From: Escherichia coli O157:H7
Lineage (GTDB): Bacteria > Pseudomonadota > Gammaproteobacteria > Enterobacterales > Enterobacteriaceae
Assembly: GCF_013167455.1 (NCBI RefSeq)
Contig: NZ_CP038328.1
Reading direction: 5' to 3' (one strand)
DNA length: 64,000 nt
The notes under the pieces were generated by a model. That model saw nothing but the letters and a program-made list of their open reading frames with translations, ran no database searches and had not been told where the DNA came from. The position numbers and the translations under genes are program-made. Of the stretch, positions 58,757-61,027 are shown piece by piece. Positions within the stretch are counted from its first letter, which is position 1, and each line of letters opens with the position of its first letter.

Positions 58757-61027
58757 TCAATTCTCTTGCCCCAGCGCCTGCGCCAACTGCGCACGGGTAA
58801 AGGGTTTGCGCAACAGCGCCACGTCTGGCAGCGCGGGGTTATGGCTGGGGCGTAAATCCTGACCGCTGATGAGTAGCAGCGTCAGGTGCGGGTAAAGTTT
58901 GCGGGCCGCATTGACCACTTCTGCGCCGCTCATGCCGCCGGGGAGCATTAAATCGCTGATAAAAATATCGATTTCTGCTGATGCCGCCAGCAGATCCAGC
59001 GCCTGTTCGCCGCTGCTTGCTTCCAGCGTCAAATAGCCCAGCAGGTGCAACTGTTCGCAGATGGTCTGGCGCACCGCGGCTTCATCTTCCAGCACTAACA
59101 CCAGTTTATCGCCGCTGACAGAAGCCTGTTCTACTGCCGCTGGCGATAGGTTTTTCGCCGCCGTCAGCGCGCGGGGAAGCTGTAATCTGACCGTTGTCCC
59201 CTGCCCCGGCGCGCTTTCAATTTCAACGCGCCCACCGGACTGGCGCACAAAACCATAGACCATCGACAAACCCAGCCCGCTGCCGCTGCCCGTCTGTTTG
59301 GTGGTAAAGAATGGCTCAAATACCTGGCTTTTCACCGCCTGCGACATACCGCAGCCATGATCGATGACCTCCAGTGCCACCATGTCCTGACGCTGCCCAC
59401 TGCTGCGAGTAACGCGCTGATTCCAGGTACGAATTTTGATGATTCCCGTCTGCCCTTCCATCGCGTCACGGGCGTTCATCACCAGGTTGATGATGGCATT
59501 TTCCAGTTGGCTGATGTCAATCCACGCGGGCCACGCCGGAGACTGCGCTTCAATCTCCAGCGCCAGCGTTGCCGGTAAGGAGTGGCGCATTAATTCGCTT
59601 AACTCTTCCAGCAATGTTTTCAGTTCAACGGCTTGCGGATGTAAGGACTGCTTGCGGGAAAACGCCAGCAGTCGTTGTGTCAGTAGCGCCCCACGTTCGG
59701 CAGCTTGCAGCGCCCGCTGTATTCGCGGCGCGTCTGGCGAGTCCGGATTCACCAGCTCCAGGCTGCCAATAATCACCGCCAGCAGATTATTAAAATCATG
59801 GGCCAGCCCGCCCGTCAGTTGCCCGACAGCTTTCAGTTTCTGGCTGTGTAATAGCGCCTCTTCCAACCCCTGCCGCTCAGTTTGGGCAATCTCCATCTGC
59901 GTGGTCTTCTCTTTTAGCAGCCGTGAGGTTCGTTCGAGTGACGCGGTATTGCGGGCAAAAACGTTAAAGGCGCGCGCCAGTTCACCCAACTCATCACGCC
60001 GCTGTAACGCCGGAAAAGTGACGTCCGCTTCGCCGTGCGCCAGGCGGCTCATGGCGCGGGAAATCGCCGTCAGGTTAGTGCCGAGGTTGCGATAGATATA
60101 CCAGCCGGCAAACGCGGTGATCACCACCGCTAACAGGGCGAAAATCATGATCACCCTCTCGCCGGAGCGCAAATCCTGGTAACTTTGCGCCACACGCTGA
60201 CCGGAGAGCGTCGCCACCTGTTCGGCGTAACGGTTGATGTCGCCATTGAGGATCGCCACCAGCGCTTTGATGTGAAACATATACCAGCTGATTGCCAGAT
60301 CGCTTTGCTCCAGAGCGGCAGAAAGCGGCGCGAGTTTACGCATTTCATCATTGAAATCATTGAAATCATTGAGTAACGTATTAACCAATGGCGTATCGCT
60401 GTGGGTCGGCAACGCAGACATTACCCCGACCAGTTGATGAATAATCGCCTGCGGCGCGGGGGTGGCAATAGCGGCAACAATCAGTCGGTTCATCTCGTTA
60501 AGCAAAATATCATCTTGCGCGTGAGTGACTTTTTGCAGATGCCGCAGATAACTTAAGTTTTGATACAGCGAACTTAACAGCGCGTTGCGCTCCAGATGCC
60601 GCCTTTGCCCGCGCTCCAGCATACCGCCGACGCTGGTTTGCAGTTCGTTGCTACGCGTGATGATTCGCGTCACCAGCCCGGCTTCCTGCTGCGCTAAAGG
60701 CGCGTTCGCCAGTTGTGCAAGCGAGCTTTTTAATGCCCGCTGTGTCTCCTGCAACCGCTCGGCTTCGCCTTTATATTCCAGCGCTCCCACCACCTGCGAC
60801 AATCGCACCGCCGCCGTTGCCACGTTTGCCGTGTCGCGCGCCAGATTCAGGCTGCCGGTCATATCATCCACCGTTTGCTGCTGCACCAGCTCCTGCATCT
60901 GGCTGGCATGACGAAAGCCCATTACCGCCACGCCGCTGACCATCAACGTCACCGCCACCACCAGCAAATTCAAAAGCAGCAATCGCCCGCGCGCGCTGGC
61001 AAAAAAGTGACGTCCGGGGTGCGCCAT
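58757..61027 (-). CDS. Hybrid sensor histidine kinase (TM, ~290-aa periplasmic domain, TM, HAMP, HisKA, HATPase_c, C-terminal receiver), ~756 aa
   Basis: Start set at MAHPGRHFF... (GGAG SD upstream); ORF track extends to 61204. H-box GGLAHDFNNLLAVIIGSLEL, N-box NLVMNARDAM, G-boxes IDHGCGM and GSGLGLSMV, receiver LVLEDE...FISDLMLPG...LRKPF. Confidence 0.85.
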   Translation of the reverse strand: MAHPGRHFFASARGRLLLLNLLVVAVTLMVSGVAVMGFRHASQMQELVQQQTVDDMTGSLNLARDTANVATAAVRLSQVVGALEYKGEAERLQETQRALKSSLAQLANAPLAQQEAGLVTRIITRSNELQTSVGGMLERGQRRHLERNALLSSLYQNLSYLRHLQKVTHAQDDILLNEMNRLIVAAIATPAPQAIIHQLVGVMSALPTHSDTPLVNTLLNDFNDFNDEMRKLAPLSAALEQSDLAISWYMFHIKALVAILNGDINRYAEQVATLSGQRVAQSYQDLRSGERVIMIFALLAVVITAFAGWYIYRNLGTNLTAISRAMSRLAHGEADVTFPALQRRDELGELARAFNVFARNTASLERTSRLLKEKTTQMEIAQTERQGLEEALLHSQKLKAVGQLTGGLAHDFNNLLAVIIGSLELVNPDSPDAPRIQRALQAAERGALLTQRLLAFSRKQSLHPQAVELKTLLEELSELMRHSLPATLALEIEAQSPAWPAWIDISQLENAIINLVMNARDAMEGQTGIIKIRTWNQRVTRSSGQRQDMVALEVIDHGCGMSQAVKSQVFEPFFTTKQTGSGSGLGLSMVYGFVRQSGGRVEIESAPGQGTTVRLQLPRALTAAKNLSPAAVEQASVSGDKLVLVLEDEAAVRQTICEQLHLLGYLTLEASSGEQALDLLAASAEIDIFISDLMLPGGMSGAEVVNAARKLYPHLTLLLISGQDLRPSHNPALPDVALLRKPFTRAQLAQALGQEN

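Follow-up and report, generated by a model that had tools for sequence, protein, structure and literature searches.

In Escherichia coli O157:H7, the hybrid sensor histidine kinase LmvK ends directly behind a catalytically complete C-terminal receiver domain, carries no detectable histidine phosphotransfer (HPt) domain, and is partnered by the response regulator LmvR, whose gene lies at the opposite end of the 9-kb island that also carries the kinase gene. The kinase gene was analyzed in a 64,000-nucleotide stretch of DNA (assembly GCF_013167455.1, contig NZ_CP038328.1; referred to here as the window), of which it occupies positions 58757 to 61027. On balance, and with limited confidence, we favor a design like that of VirA, in which the phosphoryl group would pass directly from the kinase histidine to the regulator aspartate, and the receiver would serve as an internal regulator or sink. 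The kinase, its architecture without an HPt domain, and the puzzle of the missing HPt are already in print, and hybrid kinases lacking an HPt domain are known from VirA, RcsC, and CckA; the gap addressed here is mechanistic and modest, within a system already described, and no departure from established types of two-component system was seen. LmvK, also named RbfS, switches on the type III secretion system of the locus of enterocyte effacement (LEE) in O157:H7 upon gut signals, and its wiring therefore matters for virulence regulation and anti-virulence targeting. The point at issue is whether phosphate reaches LmvR directly or through an HPt, together with the role of the receiver, and on this the two papers describing the system implicitly disagree.

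Identity and architecture of the kinase

The kinase region matched hundreds of E. coli O157:H7 chromosomes at 100% identity, and in these the gene is annotated as "hybrid sensor histidine kinase/response regulator." It is Z5692 of island OI-167 (strain EDL933), an identity established because the position in the island, the numbering of H410 and D692, and the similarity values to TorS and TorR match those published. Z5692 and its partner Z5684 have been named RbfS and RbfR (Liu et al., PNAS 2022; PMC9860305) as well as LmvK and LmvR, together with an operon lmuKAIZYX (Yang et al., mBio 2023; PMC10128022); a review (PMC11644481) also treats the LmvK/LmvR system. In BLASTP comparisons with K-12 proteins, LmvK was 26% identical to TorS from the second transmembrane segment (TM2) through the receiver, with 43% positives, and LmvR was 36% identical to TorR, with 56% positives. 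The positives equal the similarities printed in PMC9860305 (43% for Z5692/TorS and 56% for Z5684/TorR), and the numbering of H410 and D692 is identical in PMC10128022. Domain order, both phosphorylation sites, the partner, the lmuX box, and the yjcS-yjdP insertion site were all as published for LmvK/LmvR and RbfS/RbfR, and no sequence difference was found.

The open reading frame (ORF) of lmvK begins at 61027 with an ATG that follows a GGAG and closes with a TGA stop (codon 58757-58759). Pfam searches placed HisKA, HATPase_c, and Response_reg on one polypeptide (Table 1), which makes LmvK a hybrid histidine kinase. In an AlphaFold2 (AF2) model of the whole protein (mean predicted local distance difference test score, pLDDT, of 71), the receiver formed a (beta-alpha)5 fold finishing at the C terminus, and the chain stopped in the fifth receiver helix (residues 745-755). 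The original prediction, made from the letters of the window alone, had stated that the hybrid kinase stops right behind its receiver, and Pfam, the sequence end, and the AF2 model all agreed with it. It had also quoted the C terminus correctly (LRKPFTRAQLAQALGQEN-stop) but placed this end about 20 residues past the receiver lysine, whereas 15 residues run from K741 to the end.

Partner regulator and target promoter

LmvR is a 235-amino-acid (aa) protein of the OmpR/PhoB family, encoded on the strand opposite to the lmu operon at window-equivalent positions 67200-67907, at a distance of 3.2 kb from the end of the window and 6.2 kb from the start of lmvK. Its top NCBIfam matches were OmpR, VirG, and PhoB, all under cut-off. 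The pairing of LmvK with LmvR is experimental and rests on the phenotypes of deletion strains and of H410A and D54Q mutants, on phosphotransfer in vitro, and on footprints at PlmuX and ler (PMC9860305, PMC10128022); the H410A mutant of LmvK was defective (PMC10128022). The original prediction had named, among the observations that would count against it, a gene for a cognate regulator shortly past the end of the window; lmvR lies there. Its inference of an unlinked regulator, offered as one of two options for the output, thus failed, because LmvR shares the island of the kinase, is syntenic with it in more than 20 species, and has been paired with it experimentally. The statement that the window holds no response regulator was incorrect as worded, since DcuR and PmrA are present, and correct in the narrower sense that the regulator cognate to LmvK is encoded outside it. 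DcuS/DcuR (21369-23716) and PmrA/PmrB (BasR/BasS; 39081-40850), two complete systems unrelated to LmvK/LmvR, scored above their NCBIfam cut-offs, and DcuR and PmrA each adjoin their own kinase, 19 to 35 kb from lmvK.

The divergent intergenic region between lmvK and lmuX contains a conserved block of approximately 39 bp with adjacent promoter sequence, at about 61054-61093 on the plus strand. In a 113-bp intergenic alignment of 11 genera, this block was near-invariant from E. coli to Serratia, while its flanks diverged. The LmvR direct repeat, ATATGA-CAA-ATATGA, is located at 61054-61068 (plus strand), and the block matches the DNase I footprint of LmvR, ATATGA-N3-ATATGA, at -41 to -62 of PlmuX (PMC10128022). 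The spacing between the block and lmuX was fixed; that between the block and the kinase gene varied in other genera through palindromic insertions resembling repetitive extragenic palindromic (REP) elements, which never fell between the block and lmuX in the aligned genera. The ler footprint of the PNAS paper (TCTCACATAATTTATATCATT) was compared by eye with the conserved lmuX box, and no convincing match was seen. The footprint sequences given for RbfR/LmvR differ between the two papers, one being at ler and the other at lmuX.

Absence of an HPt and the route of phosphotransfer

An HPt was searched for in the kinase and around its orthologs. The Pfam Hpt model gave no match in LmvK even at an E value of ≤10, and none in 17 representative orthologous kinases (0/17). 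Five HPt domains were retrieved from E. coli K-12, all intact, and a custom hidden Markov model (HMM) was made from them; LmvK scored <10 bits with it, and none of 2,208 ORFs within ±10 kb of the orthologous loci was matched, although a model from only five sequences has limited sensitivity and would miss distant or ChpT/Spo0B-like phosphotransferases. No HxxKG-type motif was found in a plausible gene among the same ORFs, and tblastn of the five domains against the window gave no match. LmvK, with no HPt C-terminal to its receiver, thus lies outside the unorthodox kinases of the ArcB/BarA/EvgS/TorS type. The earlier claim that a C-terminal HPt is absent, for which a domain search had been proposed as the check, was upheld by Pfam and by the AF2 model, which ends at the receiver; the E. 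coli comparators listed with that claim left out RcsC, another hybrid kinase that has no HPt. An Rcs-like arrangement was not seen either: in 22 syntenic loci, no HPt gene stood in or beside the module, and because all genes between the regulator and the kinase are accounted for, there is no room for one.

These loci come from a wider survey. A query consisting of the sensor and HAMP regions, compared with 1.8 billion representative proteins, recovered full-length relatives down to approximately 25% identity, and screening a single genome for each species yielded about 24 true orthologous loci, in Citrobacter, Leclercia, Enterobacter, Pseudescherichia, Phytobacter, Kosakonia, Cedecea, Serratia, Pantoea, Pluralibacter, Acerihabitans, Tolumonas, Oceanobacter, and Vibrio. 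The order conserved in 22 Enterobacterales loci was regulator, (PfkB, aldolase, isomerase), binding protein, permease, ATPase, and divergent kinase, with abutting gene boundaries and no unassigned gene; two metagenomic contigs agreed. In Oceanobacter and Vibrio, the regulator gene is immediately upstream of the kinase gene, and the binding-protein gene follows or is nearby. In many genera, as in O157:H7, the module stands beside yjdP and phnP.

The receiver was retained throughout. HAMP, HisKA, HATPase_c, and Response_reg were detected by Pfam in all 17 orthologs examined, and PAS_7 was detected in 12. The tails behind the receiver lysine measured 14 to 35 aa, including those of orthologs that were only 29 to 33% identical. 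H410, E/D647, D648, D692, S/T721, and K741 were kept in 17/17 orthologs, and the receiver quintet was also kept in 11/11 sequences of a family alignment. Judged by per-domain identity, the receiver was more conserved than the sensor, and the linker (residues 621-641) was unconstrained. Because its catalytic residues are invariant and its constraint exceeds that of the sensor and the linker, the LmvK receiver is a selected, catalytically complete domain rather than a decaying remnant. The acidic pair, the phospho-acceptor Asp, the Ser/Thr, and the Lys expected of a competent receiver are all present in its sequence.

Direct evidence on the transfer itself comes from the published work. Z5692 was found to autophosphorylate in purified form, to a greater extent when riboflavin was present, and its phosphate passed to purified Z5684 without a third protein (PMC9860305). 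The main text of that paper gives the domains of Z5692 as sensor, HisKA, and HATPase_c only and leaves the receiver unmentioned, and neither a D692 mutant nor a receiver deletion is described in the main text of PMC9860305 or PMC10128022. We favor direct transfer because the module is self-contained, widely transferred, and devoid of an HPt gene, because of this in vitro result, because VirA offers a precedent, and because the receiver chemistry is intact. In the proposed mechanism, H410 would autophosphorylate and the phosphoryl group would then go directly to D54 of LmvR, in the manner of VirA and VirG, without an HPt. Phosphorylated LmvR would activate the divergent lmuXYZIAK operon via the ATATGA-N3-ATATGA box and, in enterohemorrhagic E. 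coli (EHEC), also ler. D692 would be a working phospho-acceptor, and the receiver would be an intramolecular competing sink, a gate, or a partner-docking module that tunes the flux to LmvR, not a relay station. Gene identity, architecture, partner regulator, and target promoter are shown, whereas we infer the direct route in vivo and the role of the receiver, for which that of an intramolecular sink is plausible.

Several points weigh against direct transfer. The authors of PMC10128022, who work on the system and call LmvK a hybrid kinase, draw transfer "via an unknown Hpt" in their Fig. 8 model, with dashed arrows and marked as needing evidence. His-to-Asp transfer in vitro at a 1:10 kinase-to-regulator ratio can be non-physiological. 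The closest solved structure to the LmvK kinase core was the CckA kinase core (5idj; E = 6e-40), and CckA relays via a separate phosphotransferase. A relay would equally require an invariant phospho-acceptor Asp. All hosts of the module (Enterobacterales, Vibrio) have HPt domains elsewhere, and function in Citrobacter rodentium or other EHEC strains therefore does not discriminate between the routes. Finally, BLASTP of the internal receiver against the LmvR receiver produced no alignment; one DHp domain would have two very different receivers to serve. An alignment could have spoken for a common DHp specificity, a question on which the negative result is uninformative.

The strongest competitor to direct transfer is a four-step phosphorelay from H410 to D692, then to an unlinked histidine phosphotransferase, and on to D54 of LmvR, which we regard as possible but not probable. 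Possible carriers are RcsD, the HPt domain of ArcB, BarA, EvgS, or TorS, or an unrecognized protein. This is the model of Fig. 8 in PMC10128022, and it accords with the catalytic residues of the receiver being invariant in 17/17 orthologs, with the resemblance of the kinase core to CckA, which uses ChpT, and with E. coli RcsC, a hybrid kinase that depends on a separate HPt protein in a species whose K-12 HPt domains are intact. However, no HPt gene was found to accompany the module in any of about 24 loci (Enterobacterales, Aeromonadales, Oceanospirillales, and Vibrio), and a horizontally mobile module would need a compatible host HPt in every new host. Direct transfer has moreover been reported in vitro (PMC9860305), and VirA shows that a kinase-receiver architecture can do without a relay. 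A more speculative proposal, which we think unlikely, is that the module relays the D692 phosphate via a core-genome HPt of the recipient (RcsD, ArcB, BarA, EvgS, or TorS), or else transfers directly with D692 gating a second input (oxygen, riboflavin, or LmuZ acting on the putatively TorS-like sensor). If true, the host-HPt relay would connect a newly gained sugar sensor to a phosphorelay that the recipient already has.

There is only a slim chance, in our estimate, that the receiver is never phosphorylated and is solely a docking or autoinhibitory module, e.g., one binding the LmvR DNA-binding domain. Such a role is known from VirA, the receiver of which binds the VirG DNA-binding domain and in which D766 is non-essential (PMC4705274), and the LmvK receiver is tethered by a 21-residue linker that is unconstrained and was modeled with low confidence. 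A structural role would not, however, require E/D647, D648, D692, S/T721, and K741 to be invariant down to approximately 30% identity. Pseudo-receivers typically lose catalytic residues.

The idea that LmvK is a truncated unorthodox kinase of the TorS type, having lost its HPt in O157:H7 by a recent deletion or pseudogene-like event, is suggested by the best fold match of the sensor, by a layout resembling torS-torT-torR (the kinase divergent from a binding-protein gene, with an OmpR-type regulator nearby), and by TorS itself having a receiver plus an HPt, but it is effectively refuted by the sequence comparisons, since 17/17 orthologs end 14 to 35 aa past the receiver Lys, none with Pfam Hpt, and LmvK scored 143.6 against a cutoff of 676.5 with the TorS NCBIfam model. 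A lost C-terminal HPt had been suspected from relatives sharing the sensor that are about 115 aa longer; this candidate was rejected, because the alignment placed the extra residues in a PAS_7 domain between HAMP and the H-box of DHp, not at the C terminus, and all relatives end at the receiver.

LmvK is without this PAS_7 domain (approximately 111 to 123 aa), which 12/17 orthologs carry, including that of Enterobacter sp. Bisph1, which is approximately 75 to 80% identical. The E. coli junction, KEKTTQMEIAQ/TERQGLEEA (residues 374-390; 59858-59908), resembles a clean in-frame loss, and the PAS-less form is common to Escherichia, Citrobacter, Leclercia, Pseudescherichia, Phytobacter, and Pluralibacter.

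Sensor domain, genomic setting, and known systems

An AF2 model of residues 1-369 (pLDDT, 82) consisted entirely of helices. In a Foldseek search with the sensor, for which the double four-helix bundle of TorS served as the point of comparison, structures of the TorS sensor domain alone and in complex with TorT ranked first (3o1h, 3i9y), at modest levels (E of approximately 5e-4 to 9e-4; TM-score, 0.33 to 0.64; 13% identity); the helical bimodular domains of PilJ and McpS followed with similar scores; a sequence search of solved structures with the sensor domain gave no match. LmuZ, the binding protein of the operon, showed weak similarity to TorT (E = 0.019). The binding-protein gene stays linked to the kinase gene even at approximately 30% identity and directly follows it in Oceanobacter. 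Because TorS is the best fold match of the sensor, the gene layout parallels torS-torT-torR, and this linkage persists, we suggest that a sugar signal may reach LmvK through LmuZ, by analogy with TorT-TorS or ChvE-VirA. The published signals disagree, being riboflavin in PMC9860305 and mannose/lyxose, with an oxygen requirement, in PMC10128022. The riboflavin work is not cited in PMC10128022, and a secondary review gives a 33-fold induction where the original has 3.0-fold.

Within the sensor-coding region, at 60347-60372, a 9-bp unit (ATCATTGAA) is perfectly repeated in tandem (2.9 copies) and encodes NDFNDFNDE. Most other E. coli lmvK alleles, including those of some O157:H7 strains and of O145, are 9 bp shorter (2,262 versus 2,271 bp; 753 aa). 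This difference in length represents a slippage polymorphism of the LmvK periplasmic domain.

Gene context was taken from the annotated locus of O157:H7 strain PA20, with which positions 56000-64000 of the window are colinear (1 mismatch in 8 kb). The order is phnP, yjdP, the kinase gene (minus strand), a plus-strand sugar operon, a response regulator transcription factor gene (minus strand), and yjcS; the operon encodes an ABC ATPase, a permease, a binding protein, a D-lyxose/D-mannose isomerase, a ketose-bisphosphate aldolase, and a PfkB kinase, of which the last four (lmuZ, lmuI, lmuA, and lmuK) lie beyond the window. The neighbors had been given in the original prediction as yjdP and ABC transporter genes, and indeed yjdP is on one side and the divergent sugar ABC ATPase and permease genes are on the other. 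OI-167 lies between yjcS and yjdP, an interval that holds the als (D-allose) operon and rpiB in K-12 instead. In PA20, a Mu-like prophage (Mu transposase, Gam, Mor, and lysozyme) is inserted in phnM; phnM of the window is intact (55407-56543), and colinearity with the PA20 locus breaks near 55,900.

Table 1. Coordinates of the kinase gene lmvK, its predicted domains and key residues, and adjacent genes in the window
Feature	Position	Strand	Basis or remark
yjdP, core-genome gene at one edge of OI-167	58359..58688	-	
lmvK / rbfS (Z5692), hybrid sensor histidine kinase, 756 aa	58757..61027	-	ORF and translation
TM1 of LmvK, residues 15-37	60917-60985	-	Hydropathy; boundaries approximate
Periplasmic all-helical sensor domain, residues 38-289 (~250 residues)	60161..60916	-	Hydropathy, AF2 model
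TM2 of LmvK, residues 290-312	60092-60160	-	Hydropathy; boundaries approximate
HAMP, residues 312-360	59948..60094	-	Pfam PF00672, E = 7e-9; present in 17/17 orthologs
HisKA/DHp, residues 402-461	59645..59824	-	Pfam PF00512
Phospho-His H410 in H-box AHDFNNLL	codon 59798-59800	-	Invariant in 17/17 orthologs
HATPase_c, residues 504-619; N-box N518, G1 D556xGxG, G2 GSGLGL	59171..59518	-	Pfam PF02518, E = 6e-22
C-terminal receiver Response_reg, residues 643-752	58772..59101	-	Pfam PF00072
Receiver residues: acidic pair E647-D648, phospho-acceptor D692, S721, K741	codons 58952-58954 (D692) and 58805-58807 (K741)		
lmuX, sugar ABC ATPase	61141..62661	+	Annotation; NCBIfam AraG/XylG/RbsA-like family; published as LmuX
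lmuY, ABC transporter permease	62658..63632	+	Annotation

The distribution of the module is wider than has been stated. PMC9860305 gives it as only EHEC and O55:H7. OI-167, the "pathogenicity island," corresponds to a sugar-catabolic module that is conserved across more than 20 species of Enterobacterales. The kinase gene was present in 410 of 5,426 complete E. coli genomes, and non-EHEC carriers included isolates from otter, vegetable, fresh water, guinea fowl, and goat, as well as an O169:H41 strain. Close copies of LmvK (94 to 97% protein identity) were found in E. ruysiae, E. marmotae, and Shigella boydii.

Among known systems, VirA of Agrobacterium tumefaciens is, like LmvK, a membrane kinase with a C-terminal receiver, no HPt, and a partner of the OmpR/PhoB family. 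VirA transfers directly to VirG in vitro, and its receiver has been described as dispensable, as a repressor, or as a recruiter; VirA/VirG works with ChvE, the sugar-binding protein of an ABC transporter (PMC4705274), and the lmvK gene is linked to that of the binding protein LmuZ. The VirA-like and VirG NCBIfam models were among the top matches for the kinase and the regulator, respectively, yet LmvK reached only 217.6 bits against a cutoff of 647 with the VirA-like model (NF010411), and the likeness is architectural, not one of orthology. The sensing parts also differ, VirA having a GAF-like linker that senses phenolics and LmvK having a helical sensor, with TorS as its best fold match, and HAMP.

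TorS/TorT/TorR shares with the lmvK locus a kinase gene divergent from a periplasmic-binding-protein gene and an OmpR-type regulator gene close by. TorS has a C-terminal HPt (H850) and a four-step relay, whereas LmvK stops at its receiver. The similarity between the two sensors is a modest one of modeled fold only (13% identity; E of approximately 5e-4), and LmvK fell below the cut-offs of both TorS models (TIGR02956, 143.6 versus 676.5 bits; NF008543, 89.6 versus 982 bits). RcsC of E. coli and CckA of Caulobacter are, like LmvK, hybrid kinases ending in a receiver without an HPt domain. RcsC/RcsD/RcsB and CckA/ChpT/CtrA need a separate phosphotransferase, which in E. coli is encoded beside rcsC and rcsB; unlike in Rcs, no phosphotransferase gene accompanies lmvK at any locus examined. 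With the CckA models (NF046020 and NF046026), LmvK scored 301.6 and 246.9 bits against a cutoff of 1,000, and it was also far under the curated cut-off of PRK13557. By these scores, LmvK belongs to none of the TorS, VirA-like, CckA, and PRK13557 families. In its manner of working, LmvK would be most like VirA, and in its modeled fold the sensor is most like that of TorS.

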